A stretch of 64,000 nucleotides of DNA, taken from positions 1 through 64,000 of the IMG/VR virus record IMGVR_UViG_3300037493_003260. One strand, written 5' to 3'. Shown here one piece after another: positions 1 through 9,206 of the stretch (position 1 is the first letter of the stretch; each line of letters opens with the position of its first letter). The notes below the pieces were generated by a model. It was given only the letters and a program-made list of their open reading frames with translations. It was not told the DNA's origin and made no database searches. Source of the stretch: a virus. The translations under genes were made by a program, and so were the position numbers.

Positions 1-90
1 CTTGCCCTTCCCGGGCCCGCTCTTGCTGTTCCCGGGCCCGCGTTCTTGCCCCCATGCCCGCTTTCTTGCACCCGGGCCCGCTCTTGCCCT
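1..90. repeat. Imperfect ~20-21 bp tandem repeat with palindromic core CCCGGGCCCG
   Basis: CCCGGGCCCG at 10, 31 and 71, variant CCCATGCCCG at 51, each followed by a (C)TCTTGC-like tail. Confidence 0.85.
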
Positions 91-240
91 ACTTCTTAAA
101 GCCCTTTAATATATATGTAGTCCCAAGTGTGCCAGTACGACACACAGCAATAATCGTGCCAACCCAGTCTTCCTAAACAAGTTTATTAAGTCCTGCATAG
201 CCAGTGTGCCATACTTACTCACAGCTATTTATAAAGTATA

Positions 241-349
241 CTTACTAAAGGCTTTATAAGAACTTTATAAAGACTTTATAAGTACTTTTATAATCCTTTT
301 ATAAGACTTTTACAAATCTTTGCCAAATCTTTTGCAAAGTCTTTAAGAA
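241..349. repeat. 11-bp phased AT-rich repeat array (CTTTATAAG-like)
   Basis: CTT(T) units begin at 241, 252, 263, 274, 285, 296, 307, 318 and 329 (exact 11-bp period), then 341. Confidence 0.85.
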
Positions 350-623
350 GTCCGTGACGGGCGTGGGTAAACTCCCCCTACCTTACTATCCCTACTACTA
401 TACAGTCTGCTTTCTATGTGCTTTGTCATCCTCTTAGTTTAGGCTATTTAGGCTATTTTGCTTCTCCCTGTCACTTCTGCACTCCTGCTACTCTACGTTG
501 TACTTATGGTCTCTGTTCTTGCCTATCTCTTTAAGCCTGCTTTACCTTACCCTTTAGGTCCTTAACCCTAGTCCTTTGGCTGCCCTTTTTGCGGACTTTG
601 CCGTCCTATTCTCCGCAGCTTTG

Positions 624-780
624 CTTGGGTTATTATTTTTTTGGGTTATTTTGGGTTACTGTGTCGTCCTGTCTCACTGTAACCTTTTGACGCACTTTCC
701 TTTATGACTTCTTGGGTTTAATTGCATCTTGGGCTACGGTTGGGTTTATCTTGGGTTTCCATTGGGTTTATTCTTGGGTT
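624..780. repeat. TTGGGTT repeat cluster, partly phased at 11 bp
   Basis: GGG cores at 627, 643, 653, 714, 731, 742, 753, 764, 776. Confidence 0.75.
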
Positions 781-958
781 ATTTTCATACCCTTTCGGGG
801 TCAGTTTTGGCCAGTTGCTTGGCCGCTTGTACCCGTTCGGGGGCATAGTCCAGCAGTCTATACCCTTTAGGGTCTTATGCATCAGTGCTCATCTTAACGT
901 AAATTTTTGTCCATAACATGGCAATGGCTATTGTGCAATAAACAGTGTGTCAAAATGT

Positions 959-986
959 ACCATATTGGTGACCTCACCAATATGGT
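959..986. other. Perfect 13-bp inverted repeat
   Basis: ACCATATTGGTGA-cc-TCACCAATATGGT. Confidence 0.8.
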
Positions 987-993
987 CTGTAGA

Positions 994-1048
994 CAAAAAA
1001 AGACCTTGTATCGCCCACTCTCGGTGAGCATTAATACAAGGTCTTTTG
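994..1048 (-). terminator. Rho-independent terminator closing the minus-strand transcription unit
   Basis: Minus strand: AAAAGACCTTGTAT / ATACAAGGTCTTTT stem, inner GCTCAC-cgaga-GTGGGC hairpin, running into TTTTTTT. Confidence 0.7.
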
Positions 1049-1373
1049 TGTTTCTAATTGCATAACCCTATCCAAGGCCTATTGGCTGGTTAGGTAGGGA
1101 GTAAAAGCAAAGGGGCAAATGCTTGCAAGCCATTCACCCCAAGCGTATCATTTAATTGCAGCATACCTCGCCAAATTGCTGCCTTTCTGTGTACTTTTGG
1201 CGAGTTATAAGGGTGGGGGACCGCAAACCCCCGTAAGTGTTTTTTTGAGTGGTTCTTGCTCCACTACGGTTTTGGGTCTAGGGCACCTTGTCGGATTGAC
1301 CTAGAATACTAAGACCCAAGAAAGTGTGCCTGTTCGCTTGACAATAGCAGAGGCATCTTAGGTATGTTACTAA

Positions 1374-1445
1374 GGTGGCTATTGGGACTCGAACCCAAAC
1401 TGGCTCCATCACAGGGAGACGTGCAGCCGATTACACTATAGCCAC
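1374..1445 (-). tRNA. tRNA-His(GTG)
   Basis: Cloverleaf: acceptor GTGGCTA/TAGCCAC, discriminator C, anticodon loop CT-GTG-AT, T arm TTGGG-TTCGAGT-CCCAA; CCA not encoded. Confidence 0.92.
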
Positions 1446-1447
1446 AA

Positions 1448-1522
1448 TGGTAGCAGTCCTACGAATCGCACGTAGCTCTCCAACTTATGAGGATGGCATG
1501 GTCACTTGACCACCTGACTGCA
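1448..1522 (-). tRNA. tRNA with CAT anticodon (Met/fMet/Ile2 unresolved), atypical
   Basis: Acceptor TGCAGTC/GACTGCT + ACCA, loop CT-CAT-AA, T arm CTACG-TGCGATT-CGTAG. Confidence 0.8.
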
Positions 1523-1529
1523 AAGTGTT

Positions 1530-1618
1530 ACGGGGGCCAGGTTGCTGATTACCTGCGTTCAGCGTCGAATGCGTCTCTCAGCAGGTGAGTCGTCGGCATT
1601 CTACCTAGTGGTCCCCGT
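1530..1618. ncRNA. Candidate structured RNA: three-way junction with complementary hairpin loops
   Basis: Outer stem ACGGGGGCCA/TGGTCCCCGT; hairpins GCTGA/TCAGC and GAATGC/GCATTC; ACCTGC (1551-1556) complementary to GCAGGT (1581-1586). Confidence 0.55.
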
Positions 1619-1801
1619 TTGTTATAACTGCAGCGAAGTTGCCTACTGTAAGCTTACTATCAGTCATCCAAGCATACTTGGACTCGTAGACTTATGGGGT
1701 CTCCCCCTATATCAGTTTGCAGGACTTACTTCTTCGCCCACTACATTGCCGAGTCTCTTTATGCATGTACCCTGATGGCCGTCAGGACATAAACAGTAAC
1801 A

Positions 1802-2026
1802 CTAGCAATGCTTTAAAACTATGCAAATCAGCCAAATTACAGTGGACACAAAAAGCCACCTTCCTAGCTTTGTTTCGAATAAAAGTCCATAAAATATATC
1901 AATCAATACACAAGCACAAAAACCAACTAATACAAAGAGGCTTTCCAGCAGCTCAAAGAAGCCGTTTACTAATCGGTCAATTGCATCCCTAGTTGTCCTT
2001 AGTCTGTGCATGGTTGAATACCACAC
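1802..2026 (-). CDS. Hypothetical small membrane protein
   Basis: Minus-strand ORF in gene tiling, two hydrophobic stretches; start uncertain. Confidence 0.4.
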   Translation of the reverse strand: MWYSTMHRLRTTRDAIDRLVNGFFELLESLFVLVGFCACVLIDIFYGLLFETKLGRWLFVSTVIWLICIVLKHC

Positions 2027-2372
2027 GGTTGCTTTCTGTCAGTTCAACGCTTCTCTGGCGTATTTTGTTAAGGCCCTTCTCAAAGAATGATTGTGTTACG
2101 TACACTGGCATGATTGGACTGTCAGGCAACGGCGACGTATTGCTTATGCCCGCTGCTAGATATATGTCCATTTTGTTCTTCTCAAAGTTCCACACATGAA
2201 ACGTTGTTATGCCCTGTTGCATTGTGTCTATACGTGCATTGATAATCTTGTAACGCTTTTCCATGCCTACATAAAGTATGCCTGTAATGGCTAGAAGCGA
2301 TAAGGCAACCAAGATTAATGCAGTGCCCACTAGCACAATGGCAAACTTGCTGTCTTCTCTGTCGTAGCTCAT
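1989..2372 (-). CDS. Hypothetical protein with N-terminal TM helix
   Basis: FAIVLVGTALILVALSLLAITGILYV; ATGA-type overlap with upstream gene. Confidence 0.7.
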   Translation of the reverse strand: MSYDREDSKFAIVLVGTALILVALSLLAITGILYVGMEKRYKIINARIDTMQQGITTFHVWNFEKNKMDIYLAAGISNTSPLPDSPIMPVYVTQSFFEKGLNKIRQRSVELTESNRVVFNHAQTKDN

Positions 2373-2782
2373 TGCTTTTGCTCTTTCTTTGGAGCTAAGC
2401 CAACCAGCTTGTTGTCAACCCGTATTTGGCGATACTTCCAAATCATAAGTGACCTAAGCCACAGTCCTATGCAACCAACTCGTTTAGTGGGCGGCCCAAC
2501 AGCCAGCTCTACCCATTTGACGGCTTGAACAAGCATATCTTTGTAGCTCTGTTCATTGTCAGGGTCATAAGGAAACTCTTTGCTGTCTTGCTGCACAACA
2601 GCGACCAGCTCGTATGACTCAATTGACTCTTTGGCTTTCCATGCTTCAACTTCTTCATCAGATTCATCTTCAACAATCTGTGGCTCAATATAACCCAAGA
2701 GAACGCCCTCTTCAAGGTCTATCAATGCCACATTGCCATAGTCACTGCCAACAAAGAACCAGCGTCTACGAGACTTTTTCAT
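2369..2782 (-). CDS. Hypothetical protein
   Basis: Start reset to MKKSRR (2782) immediately after the stop of 2784..3038. Confidence 0.65.
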   Translation of the reverse strand: MKKSRRRWFFVGSDYGNVALIDLEEGVLLGYIEPQIVEDESDEEVEAWKAKESIESYELVAVVQQDSKEFPYDPDNEQSYKDMLVQAVKWVELAVGPPTKRVGCIGLWLRSLMIWKYRQIRVDNKLVGLAPKKEQKQ

Positions 2783-2783
2783 A

Positions 2784-3038
2784 TTAATGCACCTGTCTTT
2801 TCTTGGAGGTTCCATTTGGATTAATGCCTGAGTTTCGATAAATACTGCCTTTGTAATTGTTAACACCTGAAGCCCCTGGTCCATAAATACAGTTAAGAGC
2901 AGCGTTGACATCCTTTGTTATGTTAAACCAATAGTCAAACTTGGCTTTCCATTTCTTATAGCCTGCAGGGTATTTAACTTTAAGCATTCCTGCTTCTTTT
3001 AAATCTTTTAATTGGTCTTGAAGTTCCGTGTTAAACAT
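2784..3038 (-). CDS. Hypothetical protein
   Basis: Tiles between neighbours on the minus strand. Confidence 0.65.
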   Translation of the reverse strand: MFNTELQDQLKDLKEAGMLKVKYPAGYKKWKAKFDYWFNITKDVNAALNCIYGPGASGVNNYKGSIYRNSGINPNGTSKKRQVH

Positions 3039-3041
3039 GGT

Positions 3042-4946
3042 CTAGCTCTCCCTTGGCTTGCTATTCAATCGTAGCGCGTCTAATTCCAAAGTAATATCGC
3101 AAGTTTCATCATCAACTCCTAAGCTGCCTGAGCTAGCGGAAGCTTTAGCGACTGCTTTGCCTGATAGATTAATAAACCAACACGGCGTAGCATCGGGATT
3201 TTCTATAACATTCCCGTCTTCGTCTAGCTTAGCATGAGGAACATACGGAAATTCTGGATGCGCTTGAGAAATGCGTGTAAGCAATTTGTCTATATTCAAG
3301 TCTAGGGTATACAGCTGGCTGCTGAATACTCGGTTAAAACGCGCCCAAATACCCCAACTTCCAGATGACTCATTTACACTAAACGTAGCATTTGGGTCAT
3401 CTTCCCTAATCAGAGCATTTGTATCAGTAATGTATGGGTCCAAAGGAAAGTAAGGATTTGCTGCTCCTGGAGCGTCAAGAGTAACATTAACGTTTAAATT
3501 GCCAGAAATTCCAGCTATTGAAAATCCTAATATAATGCCTAATGCTAGTTCCTGCTGACGTGTATTGTTAAGCTTTATAAGACCAACAGGATTTATCGTT
3601 GTACCCTCGTGAACAATAACAGTGTTAGCAATTCCGCAAAATCGGGTATCTTTGCGAATTAAAAAATTTCTATCTTTAAATAAATCTGGAGTTACTGTTG
3701 CAGGAAATATAAGAGCGTCTGTAGGACCTTGAGATGTTACAATAGGAAAACGTAGCGTATCATATTTCCATTGATGTGCTATACCTAAAGAAGACGTAGC
3801 CAATTGTGCGACAGGGTTTAAACCAGCAAAGTATTTAGAACTCTGGGAACCAACTGCTTGGGCGTTTACGTGTAGTTTTAAGGTTTTAGCATTTGGATTT
3901 AGTACTATTGCTGTATCCTGAGTAGAAGGTTTTACCTCTAAGGAAGCCATTCCTGTTGTATCTACCATGGAAAATTGGGCATCCTGTGTGTAATGCTCGT
4001 AGCCAGTGTCATTAGAAGCTTCTGCAAACCATGTTTTTTGTGGCTTATCTGCTATCTTATAGACACTAGTAATGACACCGCCGTCTGTAGGACAGACATC
4101 GTATCCAGCCAACGGTGCATTACCATAAACGTCTGTTAACGGTGTTACATGGTAGTGGTCCTGTTTAATTGTATGTGTTAATCCATATTCTGTAGACGAA
4201 TCGTAGTAATGTACTGGTGGCTCAGTATGGTCTTCTGGCAATGTGCAGAAGGTTTTGGAATCTGTAATAGACCAGAACTCTTTCCATCCAGCCACTATTG
4301 GATGCCTTAAATCTTCAAAAAGAATGGCCCGCCCCCTGGTTCCTGGTGGTGTTGTGGGGGAAGCCTTTGTCACCCCACTAGGTAAGGTAAACTCAGTGCG
4401 TTCAATAGATTCTGCGTCCAGGTATGGGGCACCTCGTAACACGTCTGTCCATTCAGTCTTATTTGCTACATCATTAGGACCAGCCGACTGAAAACTGCCA
4501 TCCGCATCAGTAGAAAAATACTCTGTTAAATTGCTTCCTATAGCGTCAAGAATTTTCTCTACTGACTGCCTAAGCTCAATGATAAACGTTTTACGAAACC
4601 GATAACTAACTTTGCTGATGTCAGAGAACTTAGTCAATTGGTTTCCAGTTAGTCCAGCGTCTATTTCCTCAGCAGCTCTGGCTAACTGGAGTTCCGTTAT
4701 GTATTTTTTTCTGGCCCTGTCAAATCCTGTGTAGTCTGACCCACTGAGTCCATTTTTAGTCATTACTGGGTCATCAGACCACTGTGGAACGGCTCCGCTT
4801 GTGCTTGTCTTAGCCAAAACTGTGCCATCTCCAAAAGGATTTTGAATAGCAACTGACTCCCCTGCTAACTCTTGTCCTTGGTCTCTATGTGTAGCATCAG
4901 TAGCAATAGGTGAGTGACAGGTAGGGCAAAGTTTTTTGTCAGTCAT
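3042..4946 (-). CDS. Putative tail tip / baseplate-associated protein
   Basis: 634 aa, last gene of the tail module, N-terminal CPTC, beta-rich C-terminal half; function from position only. Confidence 0.55.
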   Translation of the reverse strand: MTDKKLCPTCHSPIATDATHRDQGQELAGESVAIQNPFGDGTVLAKTSTSGAVPQWSDDPVMTKNGLSGSDYTGFDRARKKYITELQLARAAEEIDAGLTGNQLTKFSDISKVSYRFRKTFIIELRQSVEKILDAIGSNLTEYFSTDADGSFQSAGPNDVANKTEWTDVLRGAPYLDAESIERTEFTLPSGVTKASPTTPPGTRGRAILFEDLRHPIVAGWKEFWSITDSKTFCTLPEDHTEPPVHYYDSSTEYGLTHTIKQDHYHVTPLTDVYGNAPLAGYDVCPTDGGVITSVYKIADKPQKTWFAEASNDTGYEHYTQDAQFSMVDTTGMASLEVKPSTQDTAIVLNPNAKTLKLHVNAQAVGSQSSKYFAGLNPVAQLATSSLGIAHQWKYDTLRFPIVTSQGPTDALIFPATVTPDLFKDRNFLIRKDTRFCGIANTVIVHEGTTINPVGLIKLNNTRQQELALGIILGFSIAGISGNLNVNVTLDAPGAANPYFPLDPYITDTNALIREDDPNATFSVNESSGSWGIWARFNRVFSSQLYTLDLNIDKLLTRISQAHPEFPYVPHAKLDEDGNVIENPDATPCWFINLSGKAVAKASASSGSLGVDDETCDITLELDALRLNSKPRES

Positions 4947-4948
4947 GC

Positions 4949-7204
4949 TCAGTCCTGCAAAATTGCGTACTTCCCGCTAGAAGAAGCCTGCTTATCCACG
5001 TTGTCTTTTTGAGAAGCTAAGTCTTTCTTTAGTTGTATGTAGTCCTTGGTTCGTGTGTCCTGATAAATAGATTTATGCATACTTTCTGTTTGCTTGGGCT
5101 GTGCAGCTCCAAAGAATACAGGTGCAAATACAGTGTTCTTAACAAACGGCTCATTGGTTAGGGAAATCGTTGTTGTATAGCCGTTTTGAAAATTATGACT
5201 GACATGGCTAATCTCCAGCAATTGGCCCTTAATACTGACAGATGCACGCAAGTCAATTGTCTCGTCTCCTACCACCGTCAGAGTCCCACTAATTGTAGGA
5301 ATACTAGCCCGTGCCAATTCCGCCAGTGCTCTTACCTGCATTCTGGTTTTAACACTAAATTCATTATTAGAGCCATATGTAGGGTCATTACCAAATTTAG
5401 AGTTACTCCAACCACTCAGGGGAATTGCTACTTGGTTTAAAACGATTTCGTATTGAGTATCTGTAATTGACTTTGCAGGTTCCCCAGACCCCGTGCTTAC
5501 CACAGGAGGGGGATTGTCTACAGTATACTCTACCTCGGTTGTTCCTGTGTAGAAGTCGTAATTTAACAAAATCTCTACTGCCATGGTCCCGCCATTGCCA
5601 AATACATCCTGGGTAGTCCAGTTACCATAAGAATCGTGACTGCTAAAGGTAGCCTTTTTTTGTCCCACAGTTGCACGATTCACCTTGCCATGTTTGGTCA
5701 CAGCATACCATATCTTGGGAACTTCGTTTAAGAACACAGTAGCGTGGTCTGAATCAGTATAAACAACTTTAGCACCAAGTCCGACGCGAACTGGGGCGTG
5801 TGTGGCAATCCTGGTTACAACAGGATACAAAGATGTGTACGTGGAATCATTTAATACTTCTCCTGTGGCGTTTGTCCATCCAAATGCACTGTCTTTAAAA
5901 CCACTTCTAAACTCAGAACTTGATTCGCCAGCCCCCACGAAATCATCTAAACAGACCTGAATTTCTTCATCAAATGTTACTGTGGGCTTAGCCTTCTGCC
6001 ATCCAAACACTTGGATATCTTGCAGATTTGTACCGCTAATCTGAAAGCTCAGAGACATACGCCCGTCAGGGTCCTTTTTAGCTACTACTTGTCCAATAGC
6101 ATATTTTGTTCGATACTTTGTGACGGCACCGACAACCGTGACTTTTTTTACGACATCTATGTATGATTCGTCTATCTTGTAGCTGATGATGTTTTTTCCA
6201 AATTGAAACTGACGCGTCGCAAACCCTAAACTGCCGAATCGGTAAACAGAAGTGGCATCCGTAAGCATGTCGTGATAAAGGCGATAATTACCAATGCGTG
6301 ACAGCACCAGCTCAGCAGCTGCAAGAACAGTTTGGTCTGTTATATCAACATATCCTGGGTATTCGTTAGGACCTCCAGTTACGCCTAGTTTAGTCAAAAT
6401 GTCATATGCACTGGCAGGATTTCTTAAAATAGCTAGCGTTTCAGGCGTGGTATCTGCGGCGTTAAACACGGTATTGATACTATGTGCGTCCGTACTAAAC
6501 AATGTCTCTTGTATCAAATCAGTGATGTTACTATGACACACGTAGTTTATTTGTAGGCCACTAGCATCAATAGAATCATTCTTTATTGTTGTGTGCCCTT
6601 TAAATATTTTACGCCCGTTAATGAATATTTCTACGGGTTCGTCCAATCCAGGAGCTGTTTCTCGTGGGTCAACTGGCAAATTAAATGAAGCCGTTGAAAG
6701 GTCACTGCCAAAACCCAAATCTACAGATTCCAGTATCGCTAAAGGTTGTAGGATACTGTTAATGTAAACCTGGTAAGAGGGGGTTGTAAACCTTGGAGCA
6801 TTAGTATCCAGAGTTGGAGTAGCCGTAGCTACATTTGAATCTGCTGATTCTTGCCCTAGCCCATTGGAAGCTCTAACTACAAAGTCTACGGGAACATCCG
6901 TAACAAGGCCGCCAGCTAAATAGCTTGTTCCAAGTGTGTAAAGATTCGGATTAAGTTTGGTGTATATAGCACCCACTTTTTTATAAATGTTAAAGCTGCT
7001 AGCAGAACTGCTCCAAGAAAGGTTTACTGTGTCTCCAGTGCCCGCATCTACGGCTACTAGTCCTATAGGTGCACTTGGAATTGGATTGAGCATATCTGTC
7101 TGGGCATAAAGGTCTTCTATCTCTGGCTTAGTGATTTGCACTGAGCCGTATAGAAGCATAGGTAATTTTATGACTGCACTAGAAGATATAATTTGTTCTG
7201 CCAT
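4949..7204 (-). CDS. Putative tail hub (Tal-like) protein with N-terminal fibronectin type III domain
   Basis: FN3 pattern PSAPIGL..VNLSW..FNIY..FVVRASN..ESADSN; hub-like C-terminus (LTVVGDETIDL..ISHVSHNF..GYTTTISL). Confidence 0.7.
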   Translation of the reverse strand: MAEQIISSSAVIKLPMLLYGSVQITKPEIEDLYAQTDMLNPIPSAPIGLVAVDAGTGDTVNLSWSSSASSFNIYKKVGAIYTKLNPNLYTLGTSYLAGGLVTDVPVDFVVRASNGLGQESADSNVATATPTLDTNAPRFTTPSYQVYINSILQPLAILESVDLGFGSDLSTASFNLPVDPRETAPGLDEPVEIFINGRKIFKGHTTIKNDSIDASGLQINYVCHSNITDLIQETLFSTDAHSINTVFNAADTTPETLAILRNPASAYDILTKLGVTGGPNEYPGYVDITDQTVLAAAELVLSRIGNYRLYHDMLTDATSVYRFGSLGFATRQFQFGKNIISYKIDESYIDVVKKVTVVGAVTKYRTKYAIGQVVAKKDPDGRMSLSFQISGTNLQDIQVFGWQKAKPTVTFDEEIQVCLDDFVGAGESSSEFRSGFKDSAFGWTNATGEVLNDSTYTSLYPVVTRIATHAPVRVGLGAKVVYTDSDHATVFLNEVPKIWYAVTKHGKVNRATVGQKKATFSSHDSYGNWTTQDVFGNGGTMAVEILLNYDFYTGTTEVEYTVDNPPPVVSTGSGEPAKSITDTQYEIVLNQVAIPLSGWSNSKFGNDPTYGSNNEFSVKTRMQVRALAELARASIPTISGTLTVVGDETIDLRASVSIKGQLLEISHVSHNFQNGYTTTISLTNEPFVKNTVFAPVFFGAAQPKQTESMHKSIYQDTRTKDYIQLKKDLASQKDNVDKQASSSGKYAILQD

Positions 7205-7205
7205 T

Positions 7206-7646
7206 TTAGTTTATAACAGTGCGTCCATCTGCAGTAATACACATGAGACGTTTCTGATTGTGTCCTTCCAAATCTTTATACTGAAAACCTAGAAAATAAT
7301 TGATACCAGGAATTCCGACCTCTTGAAGATGCAAGTCAAAGTCCCGTGTTATTTCTCTGAAATATATAAGTCGATATTTAAGGCCATCCTTTCTAAGCAT
7401 GTCTGCCCTGGGTTCTAGAAAGCAGGCTTCCTCGTAAGGAATTTCATGCCGTGTGATTCCGATTGTCCCGTTCTGAAGGTCTACTTTGTATTGTACTAGA
7501 GAGCGTCTGTTGACCAGCCTAAATTGCACAAGATTGTCTTGGTTGTCAAGTACAAGCTTAAAAGGTACTTCTGTACCGTCGCTGTTGTACTGCCATAAAG
7601 GTTCAGGGTTCCCAGCAAAGTAGGCCCCCCAAATAAGGTCAAACAT
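7206..7646 (-). CDS. Hypothetical protein in tail module
   Basis: ORF with GGGAGG SD and its own consensus promoter. Confidence 0.75.
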   Translation of the reverse strand: MFDLIWGAYFAGNPEPLWQYNSDGTEVPFKLVLDNQDNLVQFRLVNRRSLVQYKVDLQNGTIGITRHEIPYEEACFLEPRADMLRKDGLKYRLIYFREITRDFDLHLQEVGIPGINYFLGFQYKDLEGHNQKRLMCITADGRTVIN

Positions 7647-7701
7647 AGTGCCTCCCGAAGACGAATTGCATTAGATTTACTGCAGAGTGTGCCATATGTA
7701 C

Positions 7702-7730
7702 ATTATAACACAAAAAGAAAAGAATGTCAA
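7702..7730 (-). promoter_or_regulatory. Consensus sigma70-type promoter
   Basis: TTGACA-17 bp-TATAAT with extended -10 TG. Confidence 0.85.
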
Positions 7731-7784
7731 CATTGTATTGCAGACATTCCGAACCCGATTGGCATGGAATTGCCAAGGACGTGC

Positions 7785-8249
7785 TTACGTTTCGTCGTAG
7801 ATTAACTTGAACGTCTTTGTGTTAACCGCGCCTGGGGGCGTGGCGACTGTCGTTTGCAGCTGAAGTGTAATGTAACCACTGTAATCAGGATTAGTCACAG
7901 GTGCACTGGGCACCAGTGCGGACCCTTCCACAGTAGGAACAGCCACGGTAGCTACAGAAGAGGTAGTAGAAACAGGTGTAGCATACGAGGCATTAACCGC
8001 AGCCTTGATTGATTCGCCTGTTACGTAAGACCCAGCCGACTGATAAAAACGTAGATTAGCGACAGACGTAAACGACCCAGAGAACTTTGCACGAATCCAT
8101 TTCTCAAAACTGTTCTGACCCGCTGCGATAGGATTACTTGCAGGTGTCAAGTTCGGAGAATCAATGTTTCCAAAGTTCAGATTACTAAGTGAGTCAGTTA
8201 CAACTGCACTAACTGTATTGGTTTCAGAGAAACTTACTGTTGCTGGCAT
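7785..8249 (-). CDS. Putative virion structural protein (beta-sandwich)
   Basis: S/T/A/V-rich 154 aa, strong AAAGGAG SD, in tail module. Confidence 0.65.
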   Translation of the reverse strand: MPATVSFSETNTVSAVVTDSLSNLNFGNIDSPNLTPASNPIAAGQNSFEKWIRAKFSGSFTSVANLRFYQSAGSYVTGESIKAAVNASYATPVSTTSSVATVAVPTVEGSALVPSAPVTNPDYSGYITLQLQTTVATPPGAVNTKTFKLIYDET

Positions 8250-8282
8250 GAGTGTATCTCCTTTCTTTAGAATTTACTGGAA

Positions 8283-9206
8283 TTACGAATTGAAATCTAG
8301 CCTTATGCGAAATCGAAGATTGATTAACCCACTGGGGGATGTTGTAGCAGGAGCAACAATCCTGAACGATATTTGTTTTGCACAGTTGCTTGGTAACGGA
8401 TTAAGAAAAGTATGCGAAATATTGCCACCAATTTGTGTAAATGCCGCTTCAGCGTCATCCACAATGGTATACGTATAATCTACTAAGACCTCTGTGCTAT
8501 AGTTAGGCAAAGTAGTTCCTAGTGTAATATACCCAGAAACAGAATTAAACGTGCCTCCTGTGTAGTAGTTAGTACCAAGTCTGTGAGAGTCTGTATTCAG
8601 ATAGACCCCAGTAACTGTAAGCAAATGCTTATGTGCTGCTGTAAGATGAAGCTCATCGGTAGACGTTTGACGCTCAAGTGACACAGTGACAGGATTACTG
8701 ACTACGCCAGCTGAACGAATACCAAGCCACGCAAATTCTTGAATTTCTGCTCCGAAGTCAGTTCTATCTGGAGTATACGATATTTCAATAGTGCTACTTA
8801 TCATAGGAATTTTTCCGTTTAAGCCGTCTCCAAATAAAATTGTTCCAGCGTTGTAGTCTACGATGTAGACTTCATCTGAAGAAGTCGAAGAATCAAAGGA
8901 AAATACAGCTGACCAGATAACTCCGTTTACTTTGACTACCACAGGATTAAGTGCATCTCCTGAAATGATAGGCGCGTAGGCTACAGTATAAAGTTGCGAA
9001 GGACTACCATCACTGTATCCAGCCAATTCACCAATCAGGCTCATTCCCAGCACAGATAAAGTGATATCCTTAGCGTCCATTGAGCCACTCAAACCTCCTT
9101 TGTCGTTCCAAAGGTAAAAAGGATTATTGGGGTGCTGAAATTCCTGGCCAGCAATGACTCCTGTAAAGACTACGGGATTCCCTGAATTTCCAATCTCAAT
9201 TTCCAT
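8283..9206 (-). CDS. Putative tail/baseplate accessory structural protein
   Basis: V.VNG..W..Y.VDY..G.I.FGDG..G.IP..I.ISY pattern typical of phage baseplate-associated beta domains. Confidence 0.6.
   Translation of the reverse strand: MEIEIGNSGNPVVFTGVIAGQEFQHPNNPFYLWNDKGGLSGSMDAKDITLSVLGMSLIGELAGYSDGSPSQLYTVAYAPIISGDALNPVVVKVNGVIWSAVFSFDSSTSSDEVYIVDYNAGTILFGDGLNGKIPMISSTIEISYTPDRTDFGAEIQEFAWLGIRSAGVVSNPVTVSLERQTSTDELHLTAAHKHLLTVTGVYLNTDSHRLGTNYYTGGTFNSVSGYITLGTTLPNYSTEVLVDYTYTIVDDAEAAFTQIGGNISHTFLNPLPSNCAKQISFRIVAPATTSPSGLINLRFRIRLDFNS

Follow-up and report, generated by a model that had tools for sequence, protein, structure and literature searches.

What kind of feature occupies positions 1530-1618 of IMG/VR virus record IMGVR_UViG_3300037493_003260, where 89 nt of nested, complementary words lie beside the start of a tRNA gene? 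The stretch analysed, hereafter the window, is the first 64 kb (64,000 nt) of this linear record of 84,088 bases, the completeness of which is estimated at 80%. A preliminary description, made from the letters of the window, had proposed an undescribed small RNA folded as a three-way junction with kissing loops, possibly oligomerising or a tRNA-shaped decoy, and had left its strand ambiguous. Comparison with copies in other phages inclines us, somewhat beyond even odds, to regard the element as a gene for a structured non-coding phage RNA of ~80-90 nt, encoded on the minus strand and belonging to a family absent from Rfam 15, for which a function can only be predicted.

Read on the minus strand, the proposed RNA consists of a closing stem (P1) and two hairpins, P3 on the 5' side and P2 on the 3' side, laid out as follows.

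1530-1618, minus strand (the tRNA strand): the whole element, an 89-nt three-way junction RNA, scoring 26.6 bits with covariance model R1 and 67.7 bits with covariance model R2.
1609-1618, minus strand: 5' strand of P1, sense ACGGGGACCA, pairing with 1530-1539.
1530-1539, minus strand: 3' strand of P1, sense UGGCCCCCGU, followed by a 7-nt spacer (1523-1529) and then by tRNA-Met.
1567-1601, minus strand: P3, the 5' hairpin of the sense RNA, with outer stem 1596-1601/1567-1572 and inner stem 1586-1589/1577-1580.
1544-1563, minus strand: P2, the 3' hairpin of the sense RNA, with stem 1559-1563/1544-1548 (GCTGA/TCAGC).
1552-1585, minus strand: loop-loop complementarity, sense CCUGC (1581-1585) with GCAGG (1552-1556).

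The 10-bp closing stem (ACGGGGGCCA/TGGTCCCCGT at 1530-1539 and 1609-1618) includes one G.T on the plus strand, equivalent to A.C on the minus strand. It is accompanied by AGGT/ACCT at 1539-1542 and 1603-1606, and a short extension of P1 past a 3-nt bulge pairs GGU (1603-1605) with ACC (1540-1542). Within P3, the outer stem word GAATGC/GCATTC and the inner stem word CTCA/TGAG are separated by a purine-rich internal loop (1590-1595 and 1573-1576), and the hairpin is capped by the apical loop CCUGC (1581-1585). The P2 loop is 10 nt long, sense ACGCAGGUAA (1549-1558), and contains GCAGG at 1552-1556; the corresponding plus-strand words, ACCTGC at 1551-1556 and GCAGGT at 1581-1586, are likewise complementary. 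The loop-loop duplex has an energy of -10.7 kcal/mol, and full complementarity of a 5-nt loop within a 10-nt loop is expected by chance in ~0.6-1% of cases. Thus every stem, hairpin and complementary loop that the preliminary description listed at 1530-1618 is present in the sequence, as is the 7-nt distance to a tRNA 5' end, given the ARAGORN call of a tRNA-Met at 1448-1522 and the gap at 1523-1529.

Taken singly, this sequence is compatible with two architectures. The plus strand folds at -41.8 kcal/mol (z -3.99; 0 of 200 shuffles equal) and the minus strand at -30.5 kcal/mol (z -2.64; 1 of 200 shuffles equal). The minimum-energy fold of the plus strand is a rod, in which ACCTGC/GCAGGT form an ordinary helix, so that from one sequence kissing loops are not separable from a nested palindrome. 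The Y shape is preferred over the rod because of the homologs, in which the three stems of the Y covary and the extra pairs of the rod are not kept.

An exact 18-mer from 1576-1593 matched two IMG/VR contigs, and a two-block pattern scan of IMG/VR recovered the core in seven (L052, L053 and L057-L061). The element is present once in the record under study, and once in each of five homolog records searched whole. A single clade takes in L057/L068, L059, L060 and L061; each of L052, L053/L069, L058/L067 and the window stands apart, giving five lineages. Across lineages the alignment is confined to a core of ~50 nt, and the carriers, within the stretches fetched, have almost no proteins in common. 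On these comparisons of sequence, the element behaves as a portable module, of which only the ~50-nt core is common to otherwise unrelated phages. Because phages with almost nothing else in common have retained this core, the element is under selection, and it is probably mobile.

The copies were aligned (alignment A4, eight copies, six distinct sequences) to a model derived from L057, L060 and a structure supplied by us, and as the alignment was thereby fitted to the structure, the covariation counts which follow are somewhat inflated. Changes on both sides occur in 21 of 26 nested pairs among the six distinct sequences, distributed over P1 (9 of 10), the outer stem of P3 (6 of 6) and P2 (6 of 6), such that the closing stem and both hairpin stems covary among homologs. 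Paired cells make up 90.8% of the alignment's stem positions, versus 64.8% in shuffles (0 of 500 as high) and 29-42% after a shift of the 3' partners by one to three columns. RNAalifold returned the same three-way junction from the same alignment, with compensatory changes in 20 of 26 pairs, and single-sequence minimum-energy folds took the Y shape in four of the five distinct homologs folded. The turnover of sequence beneath this constancy is plainest in the outer stem of P3, the words of which differ by lineage (GAAUGC/GCAUUC, GUGCUGC/GCAGCAC, UUACGU/ACGUAA, GGCUAU/AUAGCC and CCUUGG/CCUUGG). Helix lengths vary within limits (outer P3 6-7 bp, P2 5-6 bp, P1 8-13 bp, P1 and P2 together 13-18 bp); P2 abuts the 3' strand of P1, and the junction strands, of 0-7 nt, fall in columns of A4 that are variable and not conserved.

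Certain parts do not vary: the P2 loop ACGCAGGUAA, the CCUGC apical loop with the three inner pairs beneath it (three of the four pairs of the P3 inner stem), and a GA on either side of the internal loop. Homologs that failed to keep the loop-loop complementarity were, for the preliminary description, what would speak against it; all five loop-loop pairs are standard and invariant in all six distinct sequences. An IMG/VR scan in which the three central letters of both loops were left free returned the same seven loci only, and no variant loops. As these pairs never vary, they offer no proof by covariation, and the sequences are consistent with a loop-loop pairing that has been kept. In a k-turn, of which the U4 small nuclear RNA hairpin is an example, two stems, one regular and one irregular, enclose a 3-nt bulge and the tandem sheared G.A pairs that come after it. 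P3 of L057, L058 and L060 reads stem-G-RAU-GA-CUCA...UGAU-GA-A-stem, a closer resemblance than in the window, L052 and L053, where an additional A precedes the second GA.

The strand, which base pairing leaves undecided (the minus-strand reading has three G.U and three A.C wobble cells, uninformative in this respect), is assigned by context. Element and tRNAs share one orientation in the window, in L052 (28 tRNAs), in L057/L068 (14 tRNAs), and in L059, L060 and L061. In L053 it follows plus-strand open reading frames (ORFs), flanked by genes for a large terminase and a P22-like portal, with a plus-strand intrinsic terminator 32 nt downstream; in L067, where a Dam methylase gene precedes the element, all ORFs of at least 70 aa but two are on its strand. 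Context thus agrees in eight of eight loci and five of five lineages, and identifies the RNA as the reverse complement of the plus strand of the window, so the ambiguity admitted in the preliminary description falls away in favour of the minus strand.

Proximity to a tRNA is common and not universal. A tRNA starts 7 nt past P1 in the window, 1-3 nt past it in L052, and 9 nt past it in both L057 and L060, that is, in four of eight loci; the next called tRNA is 222 nt away in L059 and L061, and L053 and L067 have none. At L059 3014-3033 (plus strand) and L061 4180-4199 (plus strand), sequence downstream of the element resembles the 5' start of a tRNA-Leu, the one found after the element in L057 and L060; no tRNA is called at either place, and this is possibly a decayed tRNA. 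In L052, which holds 28 ARAGORN tRNAs in 6.7 kb, the stretch immediately upstream of the element (1050-1180, minus strand) appears tRNA-like, with two T-arm-like hairpins and a 3' end in CCA within 3 nt of the element, and is called by neither ARAGORN nor Rfam. L058 (500-1130, minus strand; the same in L067) presents a chain of stem-closed folded modules joined by AGATAT(TTRAT) spacers, with the element, 80 nt long at L058 843-922, in third place; no tRNA call falls there, and the closing stems of the chain alternate between ATCGGGGA/TCCCCGAT and GCCGGAGG/CCTCCGGC. In this company the element behaves as a single cassette among tRNAs and further folded RNAs strung in arrays. Three of the RNA arrays have an HNH endonuclease gene within them or alongside:

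L061 3298-3765, plus strand: HNH endonuclease gene.
L052 1237-1815, minus strand: HNH endonuclease gene.
L067 1781-2344, minus strand: HNH endonuclease gene.

The related L068 and L060 lack, at the corresponding position, the HNH gene that L061 and L059 carry, as would be expected of a mobile homing gene. Linkage of such genes to the element was considered and rejected on their presence and absence among related loci, which mark them as incidental to the tRNA arrays.

Nearer relatives come from sequencing runs of three other studies, the contigs of which are possibly different strains. One (X2) covers 1457-1765 with seven differences in 309 nt and an inserted T after 1617; a second (X3) covers 1432-1619 with ten differences in 188 nt; and a third (X4) covers 1526-1596 with one difference in 71 nt, before running into what appears to be another tRNA's 5' half. 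Over 2046-2265, in the neighbouring ORF, a contig shows 44 differences in 220, and the lower divergence around the element may be taken as a hint of constraint, not as a measurement of it. The insertion in X2 disrupts the sole open frame across the element, which is therefore not coding; a protein-collection search with this spurious 85-aa frame found no mis-called ORFs of relatives.

R2 found no other match in 474,452 bases from 37 sources. The neighbouring 634-aa protein has relatives (alignment A1) in five viral and 45 metagenome loci at 25-52% identity; these loci have no DNA resemblance to window 1-2780, the only DNA matches falling at about 2830-3042, and R2 detected no copy in the 27 of the 50 that were searched. 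IMG/VR scans with the neighbouring 634-aa and 751-aa proteins gave no relatives, an exact 28-mer and a closing-stem pattern had no match in IMG/VR, and a 21-mer had none in metagenomes. A 19-mer matched three bacterial metagenome-assembled genome loci among genome contigs, which were discarded as chance, having only 20 bases in common. Nothing similar was found among GenBank phages by megablast or blastn, the 58-nt core gave chance matches only at E<=10, and E. coli genomes contained no match to the element.

The known families were addressed with Rfam 15 (4227 models), a library which we take to include pRNA, the purine riboswitch, SRP, hammerhead, twister, pistol, hatchet, C4, GOLLD, ROOL and STnc100. 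Window 1440-1760 gave no match at E<=10, and window 1-2100 gave five, none of them overlapping the element; at gathering score there was likewise none at the element. The seven homologous loci yielded 45 gathering-level matches, all to tRNA and none at the element. The strong Rfam match that would have undone the preliminary description was thus absent at gathering score and at E<=10, and its claim of an undescribed small RNA is borne out to the extent that no Rfam 15 family covers the element and that the fold is kept by compensatory changes in five phage lineages. Literature searching found no paper describing the motif, which is not proof that none exists. One report treats Hfq-type small RNAs with terminators and is not relevant to the element (10.64898/2026.05.13.724894). 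Within the window, potential loop targets (14-mers with three or fewer mismatches) numbered 4 versus 4.2 expected and 8 versus 4.0 expected, and in-genome loop targets were rejected, as no extra site has fewer than two mismatches. The conserved blocks may bear some resemblance to the 3' end of 16S rRNA, which was judged to be within chance.

That phage tRNA clusters can contain small stable RNAs was learnt decades ago from T4, and T4 rnaC and rnaD are the closest kind to the element, with which they have their setting in common, not sequence or structure. Their phage tRNA cluster also holds the homing endonuclease gene segB, and a single base separates them from a tRNA, much as the elements of the window, L052, L057 and L060 lie 1-9 nt upstream of a same-strand tRNA and as HNH genes occur in the arrays of L052, L061 and L067. 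They are larger, however, at 139 and 119 nt versus 80-89 nt, and R2 applied to T4 69800-72300 with filters off gave a best score of 8.1 bits (E 0.4) and no match to the rnaC/rnaD region. The T4 record gives no function for either RNA.

Two further families invite comparison on other grounds. The purine riboswitch aptamer has the same 'tuning-fork' topology, in which two side-by-side hairpins surmount P1, make a loop-loop contact, and have the 3' hairpin stacked on P1. The aptamer, with equal 7-bp hairpins, has conserved junction nucleotides that hold the ligand, whereas the junction of the element is of 0-7 nt and not conserved, its conserved parts are the loops, and no regulated gene lies downstream. 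What follows the element is a tRNA, a terminator or another folded module, which is not the arrangement of a purine riboswitch. The C4 antisense RNA of phages P1 and P7 is cut from a longer transcript by RNase P, and its exposed loops pair with another RNA. The element differs in that no Rfam family, C4 included, is found there, and in that target-like sites in the window do not exceed chance.

How such an RNA might be made and used can be sketched from its surroundings. The element would be co-transcribed with the tail-gene and tRNA unit of the window, and would be freed by host tRNA-processing enzymes, with RNase P cutting where a tRNA begins, 1-9 nt downstream; in the window, a cut at the 5' end of tRNA-Met would set the 3' end of the element. 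The AU-rich 5' flank might be cut by RNase E, or trimmed after an upstream tRNA. The k-turn-like internal loop would then bend P3 and allow its tip to pair with the P2 loop, giving a compact, locked fold. The invariant surface around the loop-loop helix would be the working part, and most likely binds a host or phage protein in trans.

Several considerations weigh against this proposal. We infer transcription, processing and stability alike, and no partner protein is known. By wobble count the plus strand would pair equally well (three G.U versus three A.C), and the covariation comes from six distinct sequences only, in an alignment fitted to the proposed structure. The partners of the invariant loops could instead be loops of a second molecule, or another target. 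As the tRNA is 222 nt off in L059 and L061, and absent from L053 and L067, a role tied to one downstream tRNA is not general. Further, the k-turn is a presumed resemblance, and the window-type members carry an extra A that is foreign to a textbook k-turn.

The same RNA might, alternatively, use its loops between molecules, 'hand in hand', to form dimers, rings or larger assemblies in the manner of phi29 pRNA or ROOL and GOLLD, which we consider unlikely. The loops are perfectly complementary and invariant, and because P3 is about twice the length of P2, contact within one molecule needs a sharp bend. In phi29 pRNA, which binds the portal in phi29-like phages, the loops pair from one molecule to another; the three-way junction and two complementary loops of pRNA recall the element, and in L053 the element stands next to the portal gene, between it and the terminase gene. 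However, the element has no Rfam match, and most copies are found away from packaging genes, in the tRNA arrays of large tailed phages. ROOL (~600 nt) and GOLLD, both of them in Rfam, share with the element a tRNA-island neighbourhood and complementary loops, yet are far larger, and neither is listed by Rfam at the element. ROOL and GOLLD, which occur in phages and prophages, frequently in the vicinity of tRNA islands, use kissing loops and form multimeric cages, built partly by intermolecular kissing loops; one such intermolecular contact was first read as a tertiary contact, and GOLLD members often exceed 800 nt (10.1101/2024.12.08.627333). Against assembly between molecules, the outer stem of P3 and P2 are nearly equal in length in all members (6-7 versus 5-6 bp), and the conserved GA-rich internal loop sits where a bend would bring the tip of P3 to the P2 loop, which fits an intramolecular lock.

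We are equally doubtful that the element acts only in cis, as a part of the transcript, whether as a folded spacer that guides or protects the processing of neighbouring tRNAs, or as a block to exonucleases or to Rho on an untranslated transcript. A tRNA within 1-9 nt in four of eight loci, and the occurrence of the element in untranslated stretches at operon ends, would suit this role. It is at odds with L053 and L067, which lack a tRNA, and with the scarcity of the element in its own arrays, where most tRNAs are without one (L052 has a single copy beside 28 tRNAs); moreover, invariant loops and an invariant internal loop suggest specific recognition, and not a mere stable hairpin.

That the element is a self-cleaving ribozyme, or another catalytic RNA that helps to cut the array transcript, is very improbable. 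Invariant unpaired nucleotides in a compact three-way junction that has a loop-loop contact would suit catalysis, and members of one subgroup carry CUGAUGA, but window-type members read CUGAGAGA at that place, which is a hairpin and not a junction. Further, the junction strands are short and not conserved, and no ribozyme family of Rfam 15 is found at E<=10.

A plus-strand feature or DNA palindrome, such as an intrinsic terminator, a protein-binding inverted repeat or a single-stranded DNA site, is hardly credible. It would draw on the more stable plus-strand fold (-41.8 kcal/mol) and on the TTTGTTAT that follows on that strand, in a T run that two variants lengthen. Nonetheless, the rod is not kept in homologs, T runs after the plus-strand form are inconsistent among them, and flanking genes and tRNAs are on the opposite strand in eight of eight loci. 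Covarying local hairpins within each arm would be unexpected of a duplex-DNA operator, and as a plus-strand terminator the element is not listed in a consensus scan and its fold is branched.

Least of all do we credit a decayed or highly aberrant tRNA, since, although the element fills a 'tRNA slot' and P2 (5-6 bp) abuts the 3' strand of P1 like a T arm on an acceptor stem, neither ARAGORN at relaxed settings nor the Rfam tRNA model (E<=10) calls it, T-loop and D-loop motifs and a 7-nt anticodon loop are lacking, and P1 and P2 together vary from 13 to 18 bp. Thresholds of 80, 70 and 60%, the intron option and the organellar model of ARAGORN were all without a call for the element; a loose 'tRNA-Cys' at 1336-1564, with a 147-nt intron, merely clips its edge. 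The tRNA-shaped decoy entertained in the preliminary description thus finds no support in shape, as the T-loop and anticodon arm are lacking and the length of the stacked helix varies.

More broadly, these loci suggest that the tRNA arrays of phages are mixed, with tRNAs standing among unrelated cassettes of folded RNA. The element might be a minimal self-assembling 'mini-ROOL', or a pRNA-like ring or chain, with loops made to pair between copies; or its locked fold might be a portable decoy that disarms a host tRNA-acting enzyme. Either is a speculation to which we give little weight; if true, it would make the element one family among largely undescribed, cassette-like folded RNAs that are exchanged by phages and strung with tRNAs. 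The signal is unusually clean, with three covarying helices and an invariant loop-loop pair around an apparent bend, and an RNA of ~80 nt is easy to synthesise, probe, crystallise and test for partners, which offers a practical entry to the role of tRNA-array RNAs.

The surroundings of the element in the window are those of the end of a minus-strand unit. The minus strand carries every long ORF across 1989-9206, window 1-1988 is without a long ORF, and the whole record has two tRNAs by ARAGORN, both on the minus strand.

1448-1522, minus strand: tRNA-Met(CAT), non-canonical, called by ARAGORN, beginning 7 nt past the element.
1374-1445, minus strand: tRNA-His(GTG), called by ARAGORN and scoring 54.8 bits with the Rfam tRNA model; the second tRNA of the element's minus-strand unit.
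998-1047, minus strand: likely end of the unit, a perfect 14-bp inverted repeat with a T run after the stem on the minus strand (an A run on the plus strand).

The tRNA-Met has several oddities, namely a T-loop reading TGCGATT, a D-loop without GG, an encoded CCA, and T.T at pair 1:72, and although called by ARAGORN it is not listed by the Rfam tRNA model at E<=10. In the X2 and X3 contigs position 1498 is G, by which the G.U at D-stem pair 10:25 becomes G-C; this change agrees with a real minus-strand tRNA at 1448-1522. The inverted repeat at 998-1047 was not listed in a terminator scan because its loop is 22 nt; bearing an A run on one side and a T run on the other, it resembles a two-way terminator, and a perfect 13-bp palindrome with a 2-nt centre lies close by at 959-986.

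Immediately upstream of the element on the sense strand is a second block (1633-1735, minus strand), with a closing stem GCGAAG/CTTCGC and hairpins GGGG/CCCC and TCCAAG/CTTGGA. The X2 and X3 contigs differ little there (5 in 160), its fold stands out only mildly from shuffles (z -1.8), and it may be another RNA module. The 10-mer of window 1518-1527 recurs seven times near the right end of the record (record 83665-83890, outside the window), six of them at an exact 24-bp period; that region is a terminal tandem repeat, and the word that it has in common with 1518-1527 may be chance. On the plus strand, 1123-1245 contains a promoter-like site (1123-1151), a 13-bp hairpin (1163-1208) and, ahead of a T run, a terminator-like hairpin (1213-1234), making a small plus-strand RNA convergent with the tRNAs possible.

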